Positions 53,389 through 63,810 of a DNA stretch of 64,000 nt are shown here, piece after piece; the stretch's first letter is position 1; each line of letters begins with the position of its first letter. Source of the stretch: Pseudomonadota bacterium (GTDB taxonomy: Bacteria > Myxococcota > JACRCW01 > JAFGSX01); contig JBDRCO010000076.1 in NCBI GenBank assembly GCA_043821645.1, forward strand, positions 32,001 to 96,000, read 5' to 3'. Both the position numbers and the translations under genes were made by a program. The notes under the pieces were generated by a model. The model did no database searches. It had not been told where the DNA came from and saw nothing but the letters and a program-made list of their open reading frames with translations.

Positions 53389-54186
53389 ATGGTGCTGTCC
53401 TCCACCTTGCTCCTGGCTCTCGTCGTCAGCACGGCGCCCCCCGTGCCGGTGCCCGTGCTCACCATCGGTCAGCCCACGCCCCTGGCGCGACGACCGGTCA
53501 CCTTGCCTGCCCTCTCGGCCGAGTTCTCGTTCCGCTATGGCCTGGTGGGCAATGGCCCGACCCGCTTCGTCAACGACATCCGCTTTGCGCCCCTGGACTG
53601 GCTCGAGCTCCGCACCTCGCTGGGGCCCATCCCCGAGAGCTTGATGGTGCGCGTGGCGCTGGGGGACCTGGACCGTCTCGGGGTGTTCTCCGTCGACGGT
53701 GGGCTGTACAAGCTCGACCTGGGCTTTCGTCTTGATCCCACCGAGGCCGAGAGCGTGCGCGGGGTCGTCGCCCTCAATCTCGAGACCGGCATCGCCTACG
53801 ACCACGCCGTCACCTCGCGTGGCCGCGTGCATGTGAGCGGTCGCGCGCAGCAGCGCTGGTCCAACATCGACGGCTGGGATCAGACCACCGTCATGGGCGC
53901 GCTGTGGGGCGATGTGGATCTGACTCACTACCTCGGTCTGTCCGTGGGGGCTGGCTACGGTCAGGTCGTGGCAGGCCAGACACGCGACTTCACGATCAAC
54001 TTCTCCGAGCTGGGGCGCTCTGGCTTCTCGACCTTGCTGGACCACGACAACGACCGCGCGGCGTGCACCTCGGTGGGCATGACCTATGCGCGCACCGAGA
54101 GCTTCGACGTGGACCTGTTTGCTACCCTGCGTGTCTGGCCCGAAGTCGGTACTCTGTTCGGCGCTGGCCTGCGCTGGCGAATCTGA
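53389..54186 (+). CDS. hypothetical exported protein, possible outer-membrane barrel
   Basis: Hydrophobic N-terminus, alternating beta strands, ends FGAGLRWRI. Confidence 0.55.
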   Translation: MVLSSTLLLALVVSTAPPVPVPVLTIGQPTPLARRPVTLPALSAEFSFRYGLVGNGPTRFVNDIRFAPLDWLELRTSLGPIPESLMVRVALGDLDRLGVFSVDGGLYKLDLGFRLDPTEAESVRGVVALNLETGIAYDHAVTSRGRVHVSGRAQQRWSNIDGWDQTTVMGALWGDVDLTHYLGLSVGAGYGQVVAGQTRDFTINFSELGRSGFSTLLDHDNDRAACTSVGMTYARTESFDVDLFATLRVWPEVGTLFGAGLRWRI

Positions 54187-54196
54187 GGACACCGGC

Positions 54197-55561
54197 GTGA
54201 TCCCGCGCCTGGGGACTCTGTTCGCGCGCTGGGCCCGGCTCCTGATCCCGGACCCCATGGTGATCGCGGTAGGGCTCACCGCCCTGACCGCCGTGCTCGC
54301 CCTGCTACTCACCGCGGCCGGTCCCGTCGACGTGCTGCGCGCCTGGGCCGGTCCTCGCGGGGTGTTCAACCTGCTCGGCTTCGGCATGCAGATGTGCTTG
54401 ATCCTGGTCACGGGCCACGCCCTGGCGTCGAGCCGTCCCGTGGCGTGGGCCCTGGCCTGGTTGGCGGGGTGCGGCCACGGTGCGCGTCAGGTCACGGCCC
54501 TGACCGCTCTGGTCGCCGTGACCACGGGACTGCTCAACTGGGGCCTTGGCCTCATCGTGGGAGCCCTGTTTGCGCGCGAGGTGGGCCGACGTGCTCAGGA
54601 GCGAGGCCTCGTTGTGCACTACCCGCTGCTGGCGGCCGCTGGCTACACCGGACTGCTGGTGTGGCACGGTGGTCTGTCGGGCAGCGCCCCGCTCACGGTC
54701 ACCCGCCTGCCCGATGTCGAGAAGCTGCTGGGCTCCGAGCTCGCTGCACGGGTCGGCGAGATCGCGCTGTCGCGGACACTGCTCAGTCCCATGAACCTCG
54801 TCGTGGCGGTGGCTCTGATCGTGCTCGTGCCGCTGCTCTGTGCAGCCCTGGTGCCCGCGGTGGAGCAGTGCCAATCCGCGGCGGACTTCATTTCGACCAG
54901 GGACGAGGTGCCCGCTGTCGAAGAGCCCATGACCGGGTTTGCAGCGAGGCTGGACCACAGCCGGGGCGTGACCGCGATCCTGGTTGTGATCGTCGCAGCA
55001 GGAGCGGTGCTCGGTGTGAGTTCCTCGGGTTTCATGCGCTTGGATCTGAACATGGTGATCCTGATCTTCCTTGCCCTGGGCCTGGCCCTGCACGGCACGC
55101 CGCGGCGCTATGTGGGAGCGGTGCAGGGCGCCATCGGAGGCACCGCGGGCATCGTGCTGCAGTTCCCGCTCTACGCCGGCATCATGGGCATCATGGCAGG
55201 CACCGGGCTGGTAGACGTGTTCGCCCACGGCATCGTGTCCGTGGCCAGCGCGCGCAGTTTCCCAGTGTTCAACTTCTTTAGCGCAGCGGTGGTCAACCTG
55301 TTCGTGCCATCGGGCGGCGGACAGTGGGCGGTGCAGGGGCCCATCTCGGTGCAGGCAGCGCTGCAGCTCGGGGTTCCCGTCGAGCGCGCGGTCATGTCCC
55401 TGGCCTACGGCGACCAGCTCACCAACATGCTGCAGCCCTTCTGGGCTCTGCCCCTGCTCGGCATCACGGGCGTCAAGGCCCACCATGTCATCGGCTACAC
55501 CGCGGTGCTGATGCTGCTCACGGTGCCGCTGTTCGTGCTGGCCTTGCTGGTCCTGCCGTGA
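54197..55561 (+). CDS. atoE: short-chain fatty acid transporter (AtoE family)
   Basis: PDP, FGMQM, LNWG, HYPLL, WHGGLSGSAPL, QFPLYAGIMG, VPSGGGQW, QPFWALP. Confidence 0.9.
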   Translation: MIPRLGTLFARWARLLIPDPMVIAVGLTALTAVLALLLTAAGPVDVLRAWAGPRGVFNLLGFGMQMCLILVTGHALASSRPVAWALAWLAGCGHGARQVTALTALVAVTTGLLNWGLGLIVGALFAREVGRRAQERGLVVHYPLLAAAGYTGLLVWHGGLSGSAPLTVTRLPDVEKLLGSELAARVGEIALSRTLLSPMNLVVAVALIVLVPLLCAALVPAVEQCQSAADFISTRDEVPAVEEPMTGFAARLDHSRGVTAILVVIVAAGAVLGVSSSGFMRLDLNMVILIFLALGLALHGTPRRYVGAVQGAIGGTAGIVLQFPLYAGIMGIMAGTGLVDVFAHGIVSVASARSFPVFNFFSAAVVNLFVPSGGGQWAVQGPISVQAALQLGVPVERAVMSLAYGDQLTNMLQPFWALPLLGITGVKAHHVIGYTAVLMLLTVPLFVLALLVLP

Positions 55562-55775: not shown

Positions 55776-58094
55776 TCAGGTGCTCTTCCCGGACTCCGTG
55801 CCAGCAGGACCCGTGGCGCTCGACGCTACCCTCGCGGGCGACGGCAGATTGGCGCCAGTCTGCACGGGCCTGTCACCCACCAGTTCGCCCATGAAGAGGC
55901 TGGCGTTCTTGACGAAGAAGAAGGTTTGCAGGCCCTCGGCCAGCTCGATCAGCCGTTCGGCGTAGGCCTTCTCCTCGCCCTCGGGTGGCGTGGCCAGCCC
56001 CAGGAACACCGCATCCGCCAGCCCGCTCTGGGCATGAATGATCTCGCGGATGGTCTGATCCTTGGGCTTGAGGATCACCTGCACCTCGGCGTGGATGCGG
56101 ATCTCCGGCATCAGCCGAGCCAGGGCTGCCTCGGTGTTCTGCTTCATCAACTCGCTCGACGCCACGCTGAGCACGGTGATGCGCCCGCCCCGCCATTCGC
56201 GATTGCGCGTCAGCAGGTGGGCCAGCAGCAGCATGAGGTCGCCATTGCGCTCGAGGCCGCCCCACCACACGTGCACGTTGCGGCGCTGGCGTTCCCGCGG
56301 CCAGGCATTGAGCTGCGTGCGCCCGATGAGCACGTTGCGGTGCAGCCGCTCCAGACGTCGCATCACGCTCAGCATCTCACCCAGCCGGTCCACGTCCGGT
56401 TGCCAGCCCAGCAGCACGGTGTTGCTGTCCAGACCGGCGAAGCCATTGGTCTGGGCCACGTCGACGATGCCGTGCTCGATGCTGCTCACGACGTGCACCT
56501 CGGGGAACACGGGCAAGCCTTCGTTGAGCAACACTCCCTCGAGCACGCGCTGCCTCTCCAGTGGCTTCATGTCGTCGTCAAGCAGGTCTCCCTGCATCAG
56601 CTCGCAGATCGTGACCACACCGCGCCCCTGGGCGAACCAGTCGCCGAACTGCACCAGGTCGAGGCGCTTGAGGGCATCCTCGACGAAGACCAGCACATGG
56701 GGCCTGAAGTTGCGAGCGGTCATGGGGCGCTCGCGCAGCCGGAACAGGGCCCAGCGGATCAGCGCCTCGTACACGTCACGCCGGGAGTCGCCCCAGTCAG
56801 CCTGTCGCTCGCGGCGCTTCAGGGCGAGCCACAGCACGATCTCGATGGCGATGGCGAGGACGCTGGCGGCGGCGTTGATGAGGAACATGACGGCGAAGCA
56901 TCCCAGGGCGCCGGCCAGGCTGAGCCACCATGGCGGCCGTATCCTCGGGCGCCAGGCGATGTTGCCGGACAGGGACTCCAGGGCGGCGGCGAGGTTGACC
57001 ATGCCGTACACGGTCAAGAAGAACATCGAGACCACGGTGGCCACCTGGTTGAGGTCGCCGATGAGCACCGCGCCAAGGGCGATGACCAAGGTGACCACCA
57101 GGCCGAAGATGGGCTCCTGGCCATCCTGTGGCTTGCTCGCGAGCTTGCGCGGCGCCAGGCTGTCCATGGCCAGCGCCTGCAGCGTGCGTGGGGCACCCAG
57201 CATCGAGCCCACGGCCGACGAGAAGATGGCGCCCCACAGCCCTGGTAGAATGAGCAGAGGGCCAAGCGGGGCGATGCGCGCCCACACCAGGGGATCGCTG
57301 CGCAGCACCGCGGGATCCGCACCGAAGGACAGCAGCACAGGCACGACCAGATAGACCGCAAGGCCCACGACGGTTGCCGAGATGGCTCCCAGCGGGATGG
57401 CGCGCATCGGGTTGGCGAGGTCGCCAGACAGGCCGAGCCCGGCCATGATGCCTGTCACCGCCGGGAAGAACACCGCGAACACGATCCAGAACGACTGCTC
57501 GCCCGACGGCGCCATGGCAGCCGGGCTCAGCTCAAGCCCTCGGTTGGCCGCACCGAGACCCAGGGCCACCAGTGAGATCGCGATGAGCGCCATGACCGGG
57601 AGCTGGACCTTGAGTGCCAGGGTCGCGCCCTTGAAGGATAGCGCCCCCACAGCAACCACGATGACAAAGGCCACAGGCTGCAAAGGCACCTCTGGCCACA
57701 CGATGCGAAAGGATTCGGCGAGACCGAAGCTGTACAGGGTGACCGAGAAGGCCTGCGACAGGAACAGCGGCAGACCGATGGCGCCACCTATCTCGACACC
57801 CAGGCTGCGTGAGATCATGAAGTAGGCGCCACCGACGCCGACCCGCGAGTTGGTGGCGATGGCCGAGAAGGACAGCGTCGTGATGAGGGTGATCGAGTTG
57901 GCCATCACGACGATCAGCAGTGTCCCGGGTAAGCCCACGTGGCCCAGCACCCAGCCAAAGCGCAGGTACATGATCACGCCGAGGATGGTCAGGACGGTGG
58001 GCGTGAACACGCCCAGGAAGGTGCCGAGGCCGGCCGGGTTGACCGGATCCGTGGTCCGGGTGTTGCGCCAGCGATCGAACCAGTCGCGCAACAC
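55776..58094 (-). CDS. cation-chloride cotransporter (SLC12/CCC-like)
   Basis: LGTFLGVFTP..TILGVIMYLR, GGAYFMISRSLG.E.GG, FFPAVTGIMAG..LSGDL, NFRPH, VWW..NGDLMLLLA. Confidence 0.92.
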   Translation of the reverse strand: MLRDWFDRWRNTRTTDPVNPAGLGTFLGVFTPTVLTILGVIMYLRFGWVLGHVGLPGTLLIVVMANSITLITTLSFSAIATNSRVGVGGAYFMISRSLGVEIGGAIGLPLFLSQAFSVTLYSFGLAESFRIVWPEVPLQPVAFVIVVAVGALSFKGATLALKVQLPVMALIAISLVALGLGAANRGLELSPAAMAPSGEQSFWIVFAVFFPAVTGIMAGLGLSGDLANPMRAIPLGAISATVVGLAVYLVVPVLLSFGADPAVLRSDPLVWARIAPLGPLLILPGLWGAIFSSAVGSMLGAPRTLQALAMDSLAPRKLASKPQDGQEPIFGLVVTLVIALGAVLIGDLNQVATVVSMFFLTVYGMVNLAAALESLSGNIAWRPRIRPPWWLSLAGALGCFAVMFLINAAASVLAIAIEIVLWLALKRRERQADWGDSRRDVYEALIRWALFRLRERPMTARNFRPHVLVFVEDALKRLDLVQFGDWFAQGRGVVTICELMQGDLLDDDMKPLERQRVLEGVLLNEGLPVFPEVHVVSSIEHGIVDVAQTNGFAGLDSNTVLLGWQPDVDRLGEMLSVMRRLERLHRNVLIGRTQLNAWPRERQRRNVHVWWGGLERNGDLMLLLAHLLTRNREWRGGRITVLSVASSELMKQNTEAALARLMPEIRIHAEVQVILKPKDQTIREIIHAQSGLADAVFLGLATPPEGEEKAYAERLIELAEGLQTFFFVKNASLFMGELVGDRPVQTGANLPSPARVASSATGPAGTESGKST

Positions 58095-58160
58095 GGGGTC
58101 CTCCTGGGGTCGGGATGGTGGCGCCGCACTGCCCGCGCGCGCCGCGACGAGGCGGAGGTG

Positions 58161-58739
58161 CTAGCGCGTCATCCAGGGAGACAGCTTGGGCCGCGTCTCC
58201 ACATCCTGTCCCTGGCGCTGGGTGCGCTTGCTGCGCCAGCCCTCGAGCGTGTCGTCGGCCACGAACTCGCGGACGCGTTGCAGCGTTTCCTCGAACAGCA
58301 GACGACGGTCCTGCTCCGGGATCTCGCCCTGGTACACGGCACCGGCGCGGGTGACAGGGCAGGGCTGCAGGTTCGCCAGTTCCTCGAGGAAGCTGGTCGC
58401 ACCCTCGCCACCCAGATAGCCCAGGGCATGCAGGCAGCCGTCGAGGGTCCAGAAGCTTTCGTCGTCCGTGACATGCAGGGTGCGGAGCTTGTCGATGAGG
58501 TAGGGTGTGGCGATCTGGGCCTGGCGGCCAAACGCGGCCAGGGCCTTCGCCAGGTGATCGATGGTCCCCGGTGCCTCGGAATCGATGAGGCAGGCCACCA
58601 GCAGGGGGATCACCTCCTCTGGCAGCTCACCGGCTCGAGCCTTCTCGCGCAGGGCCAGGGCCGGGATGATGGTGTGCTCGGGTGCGTCCTGCAGCAGGTC
58701 GCCAAAGAGCCACAGCAGATCGCGCCAGCTGAGGGCCAT
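58161..58739 (-). CDS. hypothetical helical-repeat protein
   Basis: HEAT-like pattern (LAKALAAFG, LHALGYLG); start 58739 or 58769. Confidence 0.65.
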   Translation of the reverse strand: MALSWRDLLWLFGDLLQDAPEHTIIPALALREKARAGELPEEVIPLLVACLIDSEAPGTIDHLAKALAAFGRQAQIATPYLIDKLRTLHVTDDESFWTLDGCLHALGYLGGEGATSFLEELANLQPCPVTRAGAVYQGEIPEQDRRLLFEETLQRVREFVADDTLEGWRSKRTQRQGQDVETRPKLSPWMTR

Positions 58740-58934
58740 GCACTGACTATGCAGCACGCTCACTTCCATGTGGCGAGGTTACACCGGTTGGCCTGGCCAC
58801 AACAATGGACAGCAGGATCCAAATTCTGGGCAGTCGAGCTATAGTAACTGCCTCGATCAGGAGTACCGCTGTGCACCGGGGCGGGTCGATCACGTGACAC
58901 GGAGCAGGTCCGGGAGCCTGCCAGGAGGTTCGAG

Positions 58935-59366
58935 ATGAAGATCGTTGGCAAGGGCAACAAGGTGATCGATGCGGATCTGCTGGCACGCCTCGCGGTGGAC
59001 AAGCAAAGCGGCTCCACGGTGAGCAAGGCCGAAGCCGAGAAGGCCATCAAGTCGATCACGACCGAGCTCAAGGACGACTTCGAAACCAGCACGCGTGGCC
59101 TGGCTCGCGCAGAGCAGGCGGTGACCAACACCCTGAGCCTGGCCCTGACGAGCGGCTGGTTGCGCTCGGGCTCCGCGGCCAACGTGATCAAGGCTTTCCT
59201 CGACGGCACGGGCAAGGGCAGCCTGAGTGAGGCTGTCAAGAATGTGCGAGACAGCGTGCGCACCTCACGTCCTCCCCGGGGCCGAACCTACGGCGGCTAC
59301 CAGCCCAGCACGACGCCAACTCGTCCTGCGCCGAGGCCGTCCCGCACGCGCCCCGCTGGCACCTGA
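58935..59366 (+). CDS. small hypothetical protein (143 aa) with an Arg/Pro/Ser/Thr-rich basic tail
   Basis: AGGAGG RBS; GC-biased codons; tail RTSRPPRGRTYGGYQPSTTPTRPAPRPSRTRPAGT. Confidence 0.8.
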   Translation: MKIVGKGNKVIDADLLARLAVDKQSGSTVSKAEAEKAIKSITTELKDDFETSTRGLARAEQAVTNTLSLALTSGWLRSGSAANVIKAFLDGTGKGSLSEAVKNVRDSVRTSRPPRGRTYGGYQPSTTPTRPAPRPSRTRPAGT

Positions 59367-59395
59367 GAGACTCTCCGACCGATGTTTCCTTCCAC

Positions 59396-61132
59396 GTGAG
59401 TTCCCCGGCGTACAGGCAGAACCTTGCGCGCATACTGGTGCGCGAGCTGTGCCGGATCCATTCTGGCCTCGGATCGCCAGGCACCTTGAAGGAACTCCCT
59501 CCCAGCGCGGGAGCGGCCAACACGCTATGGCGCGTCTCCCTGCCCGACTGCGACGCCATCCTCAAGGTGCGTGCCGATCCCGGCTGGGACGTCAAGCGGG
59601 AGGCCTGGGCCCTGCGCCAGGCAGGCGCGAGGTCCACACCCGAACTCCTCGCCACGGTACGGATCCAGGATCTGATGGAGCGCGCGATCCGCAGGCGCGA
59701 TCTGGACACCGCGTGCGCCCTGGATGGCGGGCTGGGTGATCTGCTGCTCCTGCGCTGGTGTCCGGGCCACCTAACGTCGTCTGCCATCAGCGACGCTGGC
59801 ATGGCCAGCGTGGGGCGTGCCATCGCTGACCTTCACGTGCGGCGTCCCCGCTCGGGCCCCCGCAGCCTCCTGCCCTCGTCGCCACGTGCCCTGTCCGCGC
59901 TGGCGCGCGATCTCGTGCAACAGGTGAGCGACCGCGAGCTGCTGCCGTCCACCGGCCTCGCCAGGGTGCAACGGGCAGCGACCGCCGCGCGGCGCCACCT
60001 TGAAACAACCGTGCGGGCGACGACCTGGCATCGTGTGCGCACGCTCTGCCATGGCGACCTGCGCTGGCACAACATGCTGCTGCAGGGTTCCAGGGTCTGG
60101 CTGCTGGATCTCGAGCACGCGGGCATCGGTGACCCGGCTCTCGATCTCGCGCTCATGGCCTGCCGGACTCCGCTCTCCTCCCACGACGAGCTCCGCGTGC
60201 TCGACGCCTACCTGGCGTGCACGCGCGCGCCCGGTCTCCTCGATCGCTACTTTGGGCTCAAGCCGCTGGTGGGTGTGGTGGCAGCCCTGGCCGGGGTCAT
60301 CGATCTCGCGGACCTGCGCGATGGCGCCCGCTGCGCTGCTCCGGATCCCCGCGCACACCTGCAGCAGCGCGCGCCACTCGTCGCGGCGGAGCTCGGCGCT
60401 GCCCTGGAGCGCGCACTGGGTCGGCCCACGCCTGCCCTGCGTCTGCGTGTGACAGCGTCCCGTCGACCCGTGTTGACCGCACCCGGCCCCATCGCCATCG
60501 ACGGCACTGCTGCCAGCCAATGCTCTCCCCTGGCGCGTCGGCTGGCAGAGATCACGCACTGGGCACACGTCGACACCGGTGCCCTCTACCGCTACGCCGC
60601 CCTCCTGGCCTGGTCGCTGGGCCTGCATTCCCGGCGCACTGCACACTGCCAGCTCCTGGTGCGGCGATTCCTCGACAGCGGCGTGCGGGCAAGTGCCGAT
60701 GGCGCGATCCTTGTCCACGGCCAGCGCCTCGAGGCCGTGCTGCAGAGCACCGCCGTGGAGATGCGTGTCGCAGCCTGGGCTGCCCTGCCTGAGCTCCGCG
60801 CCGCCGTGCAAAGCCTGCTTCGCCCCTGGCTGCACACCCGGCGAGCCATTGTCGAGGGGCGTGACGTCGGGGCTGTGCTGCTGCCCCACGCTCCACTCAA
60901 GGTCTTCGTGGATGGACCGCGCGCCGAGCGGGCTGCCCGCCTGGCCGCGCGGACGGGGTATGCACTCACACGGGCCCAGGCCCTGCTCGCCGAACGCGAT
61001 GCGCGAGATCGTGCTCGCGCAGTGGCACCGCTGCGGGAAGGGCCTGGCTCTCTGTGCTTACGCATCCGCGACGGCGCCGTCGAAGCGGCGGCCACAACCG
61101 TTCTCGACGCGCTGCTGAGGCTGTCGTGCTGA
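59396..61132 (+). CDS. APH/choline-kinase-like phosphotransferase fused to a cytidylate-kinase-like domain
   Basis: ILKV, REAWAL, HGDLRWHNMLL, LLDLEHAGIGDP; then IAIDG...DTGALYR, EGRDVG, RD.RD..R..APL. Confidence 0.8.
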   Translation: MSSPAYRQNLARILVRELCRIHSGLGSPGTLKELPPSAGAANTLWRVSLPDCDAILKVRADPGWDVKREAWALRQAGARSTPELLATVRIQDLMERAIRRRDLDTACALDGGLGDLLLLRWCPGHLTSSAISDAGMASVGRAIADLHVRRPRSGPRSLLPSSPRALSALARDLVQQVSDRELLPSTGLARVQRAATAARRHLETTVRATTWHRVRTLCHGDLRWHNMLLQGSRVWLLDLEHAGIGDPALDLALMACRTPLSSHDELRVLDAYLACTRAPGLLDRYFGLKPLVGVVAALAGVIDLADLRDGARCAAPDPRAHLQQRAPLVAAELGAALERALGRPTPALRLRVTASRRPVLTAPGPIAIDGTAASQCSPLARRLAEITHWAHVDTGALYRYAALLAWSLGLHSRRTAHCQLLVRRFLDSGVRASADGAILVHGQRLEAVLQSTAVEMRVAAWAALPELRAAVQSLLRPWLHTRRAIVEGRDVGAVLLPHAPLKVFVDGPRAERAARLAARTGYALTRAQALLAERDARDRARAVAPLREGPGSLCLRIRDGAVEAAATTVLDALLRLSC

Positions 61133-61785
61133 ACCAGTTCCCTCGCATCGCTCACTTCCAGGGCAGCCACGCCGACGACGGTGATCTGTGGCTGGCCCGG
61201 GAGGACGAGCAGCACCTGCTGCATGTGCCGGTGCAGGTGAGCGAGAAGCTGGATGGCATCAACGTGGCGATTGCCCATCACCGCAGCGGTTTCGAAATCG
61301 ACCTGCGCCCGCCGTGGAACCGTTCACTCGGCGGCGCGGTGGCACGTGCGGTGGAGATCTACGTCCGGCAGCGAGCCACACGTTTCCAGACCCTGCTAGG
61401 GCCCCACGACGTCGCCTACGGCGAATGGCTATGGCACTGCGTGTCCTTGCGCTACCAGGCCCTGCCCGACGTGATGGTGATTCACTCGCTGTATCGCGAC
61501 GGTCACTGGCTCTTTCCGCAGCAGCTGCAATCCCAGGTGGCGTGCGTCGGTCTGACGCCGCAGGTCGCGCAGTGGCAGGGCGTGCTGGGCCAGCTGTCCG
61601 CGCTGCAACGCCGGGTCAGACCTTCTGCGCACGGCGCTCCTTTCATCGAGGGCCTTGTCATCGAGCGCCTGGGGCCTGGCCCTGGCCCGCGTTGGGGCAA
61701 ATGGGTTCACCGCCGCTACCGCCACATCGAGCCCGGTGTGCTCAAGGGCGATCACAATGTGCTGCGCCGGACAGGTGAGGGGTGA
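61126..61785 (+). CDS. ATP-dependent RNA ligase family nucleotidyltransferase (219 aa)
   Basis: FPRIAH N-terminus; motif I SEKLDGIN, YGEW, EGLVI, GKWV; GTG overlaps the upstream stop. Confidence 0.8.
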   Translation: MLNQFPRIAHFQGSHADDGDLWLAREDEQHLLHVPVQVSEKLDGINVAIAHHRSGFEIDLRPPWNRSLGGAVARAVEIYVRQRATRFQTLLGPHDVAYGEWLWHCVSLRYQALPDVMVIHSLYRDGHWLFPQQLQSQVACVGLTPQVAQWQGVLGQLSALQRRVRPSAHGAPFIEGLVIERLGPGPGPRWGKWVHRRYRHIEPGVLKGDHNVLRRTGEG

Positions 61786-63810
61786 TCAGTCGTCGCCCTC
61801 GGTGAGCAGGGCCACCAGCTCGCGCATGGCTTCATCCTCGGGGTTCGAGCTCAGGGCCAGGCGCGCATGCTCCAGCGCGTCCTCTCGTTCCCCGGTACGC
61901 AGACTCACCATGGCCAGCGAGGCCCGAGCCTCGAACAGGGAGGGAGCGCGTTCGAGGGCACGGAGCAAGATCTCTCGCGCCAGGTCCAGCCGGTCGGTGT
62001 CGACGTAAGCGCGACCCAGGTTGACCAGGATGGTCGGGTCGTCAGGGGACAGCGCCGCAGCGTGCTCGAAGGCGCGCACCGCAGCTTGACTGGCGCCCGA
62101 ACACTGGTAGGCCACACCCAGGCTGTTGCTGGCGTCGGCATCCTCGGGCAGTGCCCGGACGGCGCGCTCCAGAAAGCCAGTTGCTCGATCAAAGCGACCC
62201 AGGTCATTGAGGGTGCGGCCGAGCAGGAGATTCAGCTCCCCGTCCTCGCGGTCAAAGCGCAGGGCGCGGGAGAAGCACTCCACGGCCTTCTCGGAGCGGC
62301 CCAGGAGTTCGTAGCACAGCCCGCGGTAGTAGGACGCACGGCCCGGCGCGTCGCTGGGATCCCCCATGTCCGCACGATCGCGCAGCTCGAAGTACACCCC
62401 CGGCACCTCGCAGAGCTCGGCCGACCCCTGGGCGGCATCATCCAGCCACATGCAGAGGTCCAGGCTGAGGGTGTCGCCGGCATCGTCGCTGAGGTCGGTC
62501 AGAAGTTGATGCAAGGTGTCGAGTAGCACCTCCAGGGCTTGCGGCACCACGTCGGGATCCGAGATCACCAGGCCGCGCTCATGACGCGAGCGCACCTGCA
62601 CCCGAGATGGTTGCCAGCCCGCAGCGGCCAGCACACCCGCCAGAAGCGCAGGATCGGCGGTGAGCGATGCGGCCTGCTCACCGGCCAGGCAGATCGCCTG
62701 TGATGCACCAACCTCGACCCTGAACAGGTGTCCCTCGAAGCGATGCTTGGTCAGCGAGGCCGCGCGCAGCAGCTGCAGGTGTTGCTCACGTTCGGGCGGG
62801 TCGCCCGAACTCCGTTGCACGTAATGGGTCCCGTCGTCGTCGTCGCGCGCCAGGACCTCGACAAAGGTCTGGCAGTCTCGCACGTAACAGTCCGGGTACG
62901 CGGCCACGAAGGCGGGAGCCTTGATCTTGAGGTGGACGGGCCGCAGGTCGACGATGTCCGAGAACGTGCACCGCGCCAGGAACGCGTCGGGTTCGAGCCC
63001 CCTTTGCCGGCACGCACGAACCAGGCTGCGATAGGGCACCTGACCGACGACACCGTCGAGGATCAGGAGCCACGACCCCGGTTCGACAACGAGGTCCAGA
63101 CCCGGCGAGCGGCGAACCAGAGAAGAGGCCATGCTGCCGTCATCGACCGCGAGGTCCAGATCCGGGAATCGGCGCATCAGAGCCGCAGCCATGCTGCTGT
63201 ACGCGGCGAACTCGAGGGGAACCACCCGGGCACGATCTGCCGCTACCTCCTCGATGCCGCGCATGGTCCACAGTGTCTCCACAAGCAGCGCCTCGAGCCC
63301 GATGTCGAGCAGGTATCCGTTGTGGTGGACGCGCACCGTGGACTCTCCGGGGAGGCGCTTCGCCCAGTAGTCCGCCCGCTGGATGGCGTCGCACAGGCTC
63401 TGACCCACGGCTTCGAGATCCACGAAGAAGACGATGCCAATCTCGCCGTCCAGCAAGCCCGCATGTGGACCTGCCCAGCTGCGAAAGCTCGGCTCAAAGC
63501 TGGGATCGGCCTTCAGCAGAGCGGACCAGGTCAGCGATGCGACGTCGTCGGGGCTCGACGAGAGCTTCTCGAGACAGGCATCGATACCCGCGTGGTGTTG
63601 TTCTGGGCTGACTCGCGTGTCGAAGGGAGGGACGACCAGGCAGAAGATCTCGGGTGAGAGTTCCCGGCAGCAGGCCTCGCCGGACCGCACGGCCTGGTCC
63701 AGGGCATCGCCAAAGGCCTCGCGCAGACTCACCTCGGGCATCGACGGCACGGTCTCGCCCCCGCGTCGTCGCTGCAGCCAGGACCACAATGCGTGCATCC
63801 AGCCCGTCAT
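61786..63810 (-). CDS. TPR-repeat protein with an uncharacterised N-terminal region
   Basis: About 5 C-terminal TPRs (YYRGLCYELLG, NSLGVAY, NLGRAY). Confidence 0.82.
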   Translation of the reverse strand: MTGWMHALWSWLQRRRGGETVPSMPEVSLREAFGDALDQAVRSGEACCRELSPEIFCLVVPPFDTRVSPEQHHAGIDACLEKLSSSPDDVASLTWSALLKADPSFEPSFRSWAGPHAGLLDGEIGIVFFVDLEAVGQSLCDAIQRADYWAKRLPGESTVRVHHNGYLLDIGLEALLVETLWTMRGIEEVAADRARVVPLEFAAYSSMAAALMRRFPDLDLAVDDGSMASSLVRRSPGLDLVVEPGSWLLILDGVVGQVPYRSLVRACRQRGLEPDAFLARCTFSDIVDLRPVHLKIKAPAFVAAYPDCYVRDCQTFVEVLARDDDDGTHYVQRSSGDPPEREQHLQLLRAASLTKHRFEGHLFRVEVGASQAICLAGEQAASLTADPALLAGVLAAAGWQPSRVQVRSRHERGLVISDPDVVPQALEVLLDTLHQLLTDLSDDAGDTLSLDLCMWLDDAAQGSAELCEVPGVYFELRDRADMGDPSDAPGRASYYRGLCYELLGRSEKAVECFSRALRFDREDGELNLLLGRTLNDLGRFDRATGFLERAVRALPEDADASNSLGVAYQCSGASQAAVRAFEHAAALSPDDPTILVNLGRAYVDTDRLDLAREILLRALERAPSLFEARASLAMVSLRTGEREDALEHARLALSSNPEDEAMRELVALLTEGDD
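63083..63197. repeat. diverged 60-bp in-frame tandem duplication
   Basis: GAGGTCCAGA at 63091 and 63151; GCCATGCTGC at 63128 and 63188. Confidence 0.75.

Follow-up and report, generated by a model that had tools for sequence, protein, structure and literature searches.

The stretch of DNA analyzed here, 64,000 nucleotides of contig JBDRCO010000076.1 from the Myxococcota that we call the window, contains a compact module of four genes spanning about 3.6 kb. Three of these genes share an orientation and encode a small protein with a basic tail (g1), an APH-fold kinase followed by a domain resembling the cytidylate kinase Cmk (g2), and a minimal ATP-dependent nucleotidyltransferase of the RNA-ligase type (g3). 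The fourth gene is divergent from g1 and encodes a HEAT-repeat protein. The original prediction, made from the letters of the window, described the first three genes as an unexplained operon. This grouping is real and tightly linked across genomes, but the HEAT gene had been missed, and the four genes together form a rare conserved myxobacterial module. The coupling of a protein-kinase-like (APH-fold) kinase to an RNA ligase recurs, once as the operon of this module and once as a single-open-reading-frame fusion found in one genus, each accompanied by a small protein with a hydroxyl-rich basic tail. We tentatively favor the reading that the module joins RNA ends by phosphorylating and then ligating them, with the APH kinase replacing a polynucleotide kinase and with g1 and the HEAT protein as binding subunits. 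A kinase acting on RNA ends would represent a new class of polynucleotide kinase, and action on the tail would mean that the ligase performs its chemistry on a protein. Either outcome would help explain related orphan ligases, such as the one from Runella, that self-adenylylate yet seal no standard substrate.

The set of HEAT protein, g1, APH-fold kinase, and minimal Rnl2-like ligase was found in 15 loci of Myxococcota. These comprise the window, the loci L001, L002, and L003, and 11 top-tier ligase loci that were fetched (L-numbers denote fetched Myxococcota loci, G-numbers sampled genomes, and C-numbers contigs). A scan of one genome per species found g2 relatives encoded at eight loci. In L002, L003, L004, and L007, homologs of g1, g2, and g3 lie side by side (tblastn), whereas L001 has g2 and g3 at the start of a contig and L008 has an APH-only kinase with g3 and a g1-like open reading frame that was spotted by eye and then aligned. 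HEAT homologs adjoin the module, on either side, in L002, L003, L004, L007, and L008. Ten of the 11 top-tier ligase loci contain g1, the APH kinase, and the ligase, the eleventh being cut by a contig end; nine contain the HEAT gene, the two exceptions being short or cut contigs; and the Cmk-like domain is present in six and absent in five. These linkage counts, with the same genes together in 15 loci, rule out chance juxtaposition.

The module has a patchy distribution. The ligase profile matched 79 of 401 sampled Myxococcota genomes at 1e-10, with the matches falling into three score tiers, and the module ligase clade (E < 1e-59) is present in 12 of the 401 genomes, across 7 numbered families. 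The g1 profile also matched 12 of the same 401 genomes, and 11 genomes are common to both sets. The exceptions are G105, where a ligase locus has only a weak g1 match, and G132, where a g1 match occurs in an assembly of 1670 contigs. This fragmented assembly carries a tandem pair of g1 genes on one small contig (G132:C427:1005-1968). Another genome, G072, has two copies of the module, one with the Cmk-like domain and one without. Linkage of the three gene families in other genomes had been proposed as one check on the original prediction, and it is borne out. In a literature search, which did not include the comparative survey and supplements most likely to cover such neighborhoods, none of the papers listed reports an APH-fold kinase adjoining an RNA ligase, and the operon is undescribed within the literature searched.

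The ligase is the most readily classified member of the module. An AlphaFold2 (AF2) model of g3 made with 42 aligned sequences is a single domain with a pLDDT (predicted local distance difference test) of 94.8. Foldseek matched this model with a probability of 1.00 to NgrRnl from Naegleria (6vt4), REL1 from Trypanosoma brucei (TbREL1, 1xdn), and T4 Rnl2 (2hvr). RNA ligases ranked first, including archaeal Rnl3 and the LIG domain of Trl1, and there were 37 matches at E <= 0.001, those listed being RNA or DNA ligases. The best mutual coverage was with the isolated nucleotidyltransferase domain of T4 Rnl2 (1s68; TMq 0.61, TMt 0.58). The Pfam family RNA_ligase (PF09414) matched g3 at 2.7e-5 and 24.8 bits, below its cut-off of 27 bits, whereas relatives from other clades pass this cut-off, for example with 109 bits in L074. 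Alignment of 42 ligases showed that E40, K41, D43, E100, W101, E175, G176, and K192 are invariant and that G44 is nearly so. This includes K41 of the predicted KxDG adenylation motif, which reads EKLDG; E100 and W101 lie in GEW, E175 and G176 in EGxxxE, and K192 in AKWV, which we take to be nucleotidyl-transfer motifs III, IV, and V, respectively. The ligases of classes Rnl1 to Rnl5 carry a class-specific extra domain that is C-terminal in Rnl1-4 and N-terminal in Rnl5. The g3 protein is like T4 Rnl2, NgrRnl, and REL1 in its fold, its KxDG lysine, and its conserved acidic and basic motif residues but shares only 11-18% identity with them and consists of the catalytic domain alone, with no counterpart to the extra domain that is C-terminal in Rnl2 and REL1 and N-terminal in NgrRnl. 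From its residues and its model, g3 looks competent for nucleotidyl transfer while having no appended domain of the kind that other RNA ligases use for holding substrate.

The N-terminal part of g2 has the features of an APH-type kinase. It contains the HGDLRWHN loop and a DLEHAGIGD metal-binding Asp motif. Among 5.8 billion proteins there were 16 APH-Cmk fusion homologs with 34-42% identity, whose source names are those of proteins from Myxococcota or from metagenome-assembled genomes of Deltaproteobacteria. C218, H219, G220, D221, N226, D238, G245, and D246 are invariant in 16 of the 16 members of this family, in line with the intact catalytic loop predicted for g2. Precomputed annotation assigns the Pfam family PF01636 to 14 of the 16 homologs, and g2 itself has only sub-threshold Pfam matches, to TCAD9, EcKL, RIO1, and choline kinase, that fall around its HGDLRWHN loop. 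A profile of the g2 kinase compared with solved structures matched the corramycin phosphotransferase 8agy (5.3e-6), choline kinases, and APHs, and the NCBIfam matches were to LxmK (2e-9) and GntI (4e-9), both far under their cut-offs. The best named relatives of this kinase are therefore LxmK, which is the class V lanthipeptide kinase, 8agy, and the choline kinases, with which it shares the H-G-D-x4-N loop and the metal-binding Asp. It differs from these APH-fold kinases of peptides and small molecules in scoring far under their cut-offs (37 versus 315 bits for LxmK) and in lacking linked genes for lanthipeptides or antibiotics.

The C-terminal part of g2 (residues 366-559) matches the Pfam family Cytidylate_kin (PF02224) at 5.8e-31 and 108.3 bits, against a cut-off of 26, and a profile of the g2 family matched solved Cmk structures at 5.5e-46. 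In addition to this clear similarity to Cmk (PDB 1q3t, 1kdo), the domain has D369, G370, G395, Y398, R399, E487, G488, R489, R534, D535, D538, and R541 in common with two ordinary Cmks used as outgroups. It differs from them in being fused behind a kinase, in scoring below the equivalog cut-off of TIGR00017 (96.7 versus 135.55 bits), and in having lost the Walker-A lysine. The Walker A region of the window copy reads DGTAASQCS and does not follow the pattern GxxxxGK[ST] (GTAASQCS), whereas the corresponding residues in relatives are GKS or KS/KT; 15 of the 16 family members retain K376, which is replaced by Cys in the window copy. The description of this domain as dead accordingly applies to the window copy but not to the family, since the lysine is retained in seven of the nine Cmk-bearing loci that could be read; one locus, L007 (= L062), reads GSGSS. 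Because the window copy has lost the Walker-A lysine while keeping the residues common to ordinary Cmks, it is more likely to bind CMP or another cytidine nucleotide, or to be regulatory, than to be a working kinase. A separate, ordinary Cmk is encoded on contig C70 of the same genome (236 bits). The Cmk-like domain is present in ten of the 15 module loci and absent in five and is an accessory that is not essential to the module. Elsewhere in this genome there is an APH-like and Cmk-like paralog of 585 aa with no adjoining ligase (L023:394-2151, contig C22). HGA replaces HGD in its kinase loop and its Walker A (GKT) is intact, the mirror of the window copy, in which the loop is intact and the P-loop degenerate.

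The features of g2 bear on one explanation that involves no nucleic acid substrate. The kinase could phosphorylate a small alcohol and the ligase-like enzyme activate the product as a nucleotide diphosphate ester, possibly with cytidine triphosphate, for transfer to an acceptor that might be the g1 tail, while the Cmk-like domain recycled or sensed CMP. Such synthesis of a phosphodiester would suit a kinase that resembles choline, thiamine, and antibiotic kinases and a Cmk-like domain that retains the residues of real Cmks. However, the module is not linked to genes for glycans, lipids, or the cell envelope, and besides the five loci that lack the Cmk-like domain two more lack its Walker-A lysine. 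We regard a small-molecule pathway as improbable and as the least supported of the readings.

The g1 protein combines a helical domain with a disordered tail. The AF2 model has a mean pLDDT of 77, with helices at residues 13-24, 31-48, 56-73, 80-90, and 97-111; residues 1-111 form a domain at a pLDDT of about 85, and the basic tail (112-143) is below 60. The family is rare, with 26 matches in 1.84 billion representatives, and the ten relatives looked up are nameless singletons. There was no match to a family in Pfam, NCBIfam, PADLOC, or PHROGs. A Foldseek search of the PDB yielded nothing at E <= 0.001, a structure search of the Atlas gave nothing usable, and a wide search with VIA-align had its best Z of 8.9, in a range common for helical bundles, to designed helical repeat proteins. 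We considered whether g1 is a detached C-terminal domain of Rnl2, which is unsupported since T4 Rnl2 is not among the 50 VIA-align matches listed. In 22 g1 sequences E33, S52, T66, and Y119 are nearly invariant, with Y119 present in at least 90% and lying in the context R-x-x-R-x-x-Y-[SG]-[SG]. All 14 distinct g1 proteins from the loci have a Tyr in the last 1-25 residues. Short forms stop right after the tail Tyr, ending in YGG, YTYHG, YSYWG, or YTYYG, and long forms append a stretch of Ser, Thr, Arg, Pro, and Tyr that often ends in [YWF]-G-[TS]. A link between tail length and the Cmk-like domain was rejected because short-tailed g1 proteins occur with Cmk in L055 and L058.

The HEAT protein matches the Pfam family HEAT_2 with an E of 5.5e-6 and 27.0 bits, just short of the 27.7 cut-off, and the Atlas structure search returned HEAT/ARM repeats. 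R45, K75, D103, W107, D110, R155, and W178 are invariant in 12 HEAT sequences, and there are no conserved histidines. Because of this invariant set without conserved histidines, the HEAT protein fits a binding protein rather than a phosphoesterase. A conserved W-x-x-R is frequent at the C-terminus of the HEAT proteins, as in SPWMTR, KAWDVR, and KAWMTR, and many g1 proteins end in [YWF]-G-[TS]. Prediction of a four-chain complex of the APH domain (31-345), the ligase, the HEAT protein, and the g1 partner, run without controls, gave an interface score (ipSAE) of 0.00 in both runs.

To place the module ligases among their relatives we built a maximum-likelihood tree of 45 ligases, which covers every fetched ligase locus with none dropped, is unrooted, and has long branches at the fusion clade described below. 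A branch with 100/99 support separates the 14 module ligases from the others. Modules with and without the Cmk-like domain are intermingled in this tree, and therefore the Cmk-like domain has been lost or gained repeatedly. In an adjacent clade of 12, ten ligases lie beside an HD + AAA_33 protein (BLAST), and Pfam confirmed this in four of the four tested. The ligase overlaps the start of the HD + AAA_33 (P-loop kinase) gene in L078, L080, L081, L086, and seven more loci (BLAST). The absence of a P-loop polynucleotide kinase (Pnk) and a phosphatase from the window locus had been noted, and neither was found with Pfam and NCBIfam; it is the sister ligases that are accompanied by a protein with HD and P-loop kinase domains. 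The sole P-loop domain in the module is the optional Cmk-like domain.

A further clade, set on a long branch, comprises four genomes from a single genus and has the ligase and an APH-type kinase encoded together as one continuous open reading frame of 477-538 aa. The APH part was recognized by Pfam (APH, 1.9e-15 in L084) and, in all four, by the g2 kinase profile (5e-13 to 7e-7). Directly upstream of each of the four fusions is a gene for a small protein with a conserved, helical part of 105 aa and a repeat tail of GRSTG[IV][ST]TG. Comparison of g1 with this protein by hhalign gave a probability of 6.9% (E 0.005, 45 columns), so that homology is unproven. The recurrence of a tailed protein hints most strongly at the tail being important for the paired kinase and ligase, although the fusion genomes are close kin.

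This architecture raises the possibility that the tail is the substrate. The APH kinase would phosphorylate the Tyr, or a Ser or Thr, of g1, and the ligase would adenylylate this phosphate and join it to a hydroxyl, for example the 3'-OH of an RNA; in a variant, a hydroxyl of the g1 tail would attack adenylylated RNA. Both routes would yield a protein covalently nucleotidylated or linked to RNA, and the HEAT protein would bind the tail or phosphotail. We consider modification of the tail in either form possible but doubtful. It would account for the near-invariance of Y119 and for short forms that end just past it, for the position of g1, which is always immediately 5' of the kinase in module loci, and for the different tailed protein in the four fusion loci. 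It also agrees with a kinase whose best named relatives include the peptide kinase LxmK and the peptide-antibiotic kinase 8agy, and a protein phosphomonoester would chemically be the same acceptor as a 5'-phosphate. On the other hand, we know of no ligase of this superfamily that acts on a phosphoprotein, the four fusion loci from one genus amount to about one observation, their tailed protein has no proven homology to g1, as noted above, and basic tails of Gly, Arg, Ser, and Tyr are typical of RNA-binding proteins too. Modification of the tail explains the conserved Tyr better than action on RNA does but needs chemistry for which we know of no precedent. Its most specific form, in which a phosphotyrosine of g1 serves as the "5'-phosphate" joined to an RNA 3'-OH, or a tail hydroxyl takes the place of the 3'-OH, and the HEAT protein reads the protein-nucleic acid or protein-nucleotide conjugate, seems to us quite unlikely. 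The original prediction had likened such a system to ribosomally synthesized and post-translationally modified peptides, a comparison that fails in the strict sense because g1 has a conserved folded domain of 110 aa, and no lyase, cyclase, protease, or exporter genes were found among the conserved genes of the module or its flanks.

The neighbors of another adjacent clade raise the possibility of a role in conflict or stress. Nine of its ten ligases lie beside an AAA_15/21 + DUF3696 ATPase resembling HEC-03B. PADLOC identified the ATPase as HEC-03B (1.2e-108) and an adjoining 174-aa protein as HEC-03A (6.9e-30), the two members of a candidate defense pair. In L066-L074 (for example, L074:4091-6695) the minimal ligase is the third gene behind these two. 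The 174-aa protein has no Pfam match, and its N-terminus, VVDTNV, presumably recalls that of PIN nucleases. In Myxococcota, HEC-03 may include the ligase as a third component that has not been listed. What the window module has in common with HEC-03 is the minimal ligase, a relative of which lies behind HEC-03B and HEC-03A in nine fetched loci; the module itself contains no HEC-03 proteins. A module for conflict or stress would repair RNA that ribotoxins or the defense nucleases of the cell itself had cut, or would act in conflict with phages or competitors, and is compatible with the chemistry that we favor. The patchy distribution, the two copies in G072, and the attachment of a neighboring clade to HEC-03A and HEC-03B candidates speak for such a role. 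Against it, the four module proteins have no match in PADLOC (PADLOC-DB v2, E <= 0.01) or PHROGs, and the module contains no nuclease or toxin. The flanks of six loci and of the window consist of ordinary chromosomal genes, such as those for transporters, citrate synthase, fumarase, Tex, and peptidases, with no integrase, transposase, or known defense family among the 36 flank proteins scanned, and no neighboring gene beyond the four is conserved across loci. The earlier suggestion of an anti-conflict module is thus not upheld as far as a known or island-borne defense system is concerned, and we judge a role in conflict or stress unlikely.

We rate phosphorylation and sealing of RNA highest because the kinase adjoins a phosphomonoester-requiring ligase in every arrangement and because the nearest clades have partners of the end-healing or defense type. 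Classic ATP-dependent RNA ligases are known to occur with P-loop kinases and phosphatases as healing partners. In the module the APH-fold kinase would displace the P-loop polynucleotide kinase and add a 5'-phosphate to the end being joined. The ligase would self-adenylylate at K41, activate this 5'-phosphate, and seal it to a 3'-OH. Binding of RNA or another target would be supplied in trans by g1, with its helical domain and basic Tyr/Ser/Arg tail, and by the Arg/Lys/Trp-rich HEAT protein, substituting for the appended domain of other RNA ligases, and the Cmk-like domain would be an optional add-on. Since there is no 3'-end healing enzyme in the module, the 3'-OH would have to pre-exist on the ends or be healed by factors from elsewhere.

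A ligase that depends on partners has a precedent in Pnkp1-Rnl-Hen1, in which repair requires all three proteins (PMC4411300). The likeness would lie in a stand-alone ligase that needs partners encoded by other genes, within an operon of kinase, ligase, and accessory protein. The module differs in having neither a Hen1 methyltransferase nor a phosphatase and in the fold of its kinase. In Runella slithyformis, a ligase followed by HD-Pnk has been described as a putative RNA repair cluster (Munir and Shuman 2017, as summarized in PMC6097658). The module shares with this cluster a small ATP-dependent ligase that is translationally coupled to a kinase-containing enzyme, and ligases with a Runella-like gene order, linked to HD + AAA_33, form a clade adjoining the module clade. 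By contrast, the module has an APH-fold kinase with or without Cmk rather than HD and a P-loop Pnk, has g1 and the HEAT protein, and has no 3'-phosphoesterase and no linked Tpt1 or MTase-HIT genes.

Several observations weigh against this reading. To our knowledge no APH-fold kinase phosphorylates polynucleotides, and the substrates of the closest sequence relatives of the g2 kinase are peptides or small molecules. Pfam and NCBIfam searches of the four proteins found no phosphoesterase (HD, metallophosphoesterase, or 2H) for ends with a 2',3'-cyclic or 3'-phosphate, and neither g1 nor the HEAT protein matched a family of RNA-binding domains. Kinases of the g2 type also occur with no ligase nearby, in L005 (APH only), in L006 (APH-Cmk), and in the same-genome paralog L023, and neither a ligase nor g1 was found in the flanking DNA examined for L005 and L006. 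The Tyr tail of g1 and the second tailed protein at the fusions are more naturally explained as substrates. Finally, the Runella ligase is reported to form enzyme-AMP without sealing any of the 3'-OH/5'-PO4 substrates tried (PMC6097658), so even the "canonical" neighbors of the module may not be ordinary RNA sealers.

The positions of the features are given in Table 1. The coordinates and sequence agree with the predicted arrangement of three co-oriented genes, with a gap of 29 nt between g1 and g2 (59367-59395) and an overlap of 7 nt between g2 and g3 (61126-61132). The strong ribosome-binding site and the Ser/Thr/Tyr/Arg/Pro tail predicted for g1 are likewise present, the former as AGGAGG six bases 5' of the ATG and the latter at the C-terminus. 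The frame of g3 extends from 61054 to 61785, and the GTG at 61126 gives the protein of 219 aa. The long form of g2, starting from the GTG at 59396, is backed by homologs that align to residues 8-30; a 548-aa form is used in one database entry.

Table 1. Features of the module and of the ligase-APH fusions. Coordinates are positions in the window unless prefixed with a locus.
Feature	Position	Strand	Basis
HEAT-repeat protein, 202 aa	58161..58769	-	Pfam HEAT_2 near cut-off, structure search, linkage; divergent from g1
Divergent intergenic region with g1 ribosome-binding site	58770..58934	.	AGGAGG at 58923-58928, read from sequence
g1, small tailed protein, 143 aa	58935..59366	+	Open reading frame; helical domain and disordered tail
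g1 Tyr119 codon, near-invariant tail tyrosine	59289..59291	+	g1 family alignment
g2, APH-fold kinase and Cmk-like P-loop domain, 578 aa	59396..61132	+	Pfam, NCBIfam, 16 fusion homologs
APH / choline-kinase-type domain of g2, about residues 31-345	59486..60430	+	HGDLRWHN loop at 60050-60073
Cmk-like domain of g2, residues 366-559	60491..61072	+	Degenerate Walker A DGTAASQCSP at 60500-60529
g3, minimal ATP-dependent RNA-ligase-type nucleotidyltransferase, 219 aa, single domain	61126..61785	+	EKLDG, K41 at 61246-61248
Ligase-APH fusions	L084:5416-7372, L087:3305-5209, L088:3451-5379, L089:2766-4670		Pfam and kinase profile

A scan of positions 58000-62200 for consensus sigma-70 promoters and terminators returned 0 and 0. 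Upstream of the module are genes predicted to encode a homolog of a short-chain fatty acid transporter (54086-55561; PF02667, 3.8e-114) and an amino-acid permease or SLC12-type transporter (55776-58094), both of which are unlinked to the module in other genomes. Downstream is a convergent gene encoding a TPR protein of 674 aa (61786-63810, minus strand) that is not conserved beside the module in other genomes. There is no terminator-like hairpin at the junction of this gene with g3 (61783-61788), and the TGA stop codon of g3 (61783-61785) directly abuts the stop codon of the TPR gene, with zero intergenic bases between them.

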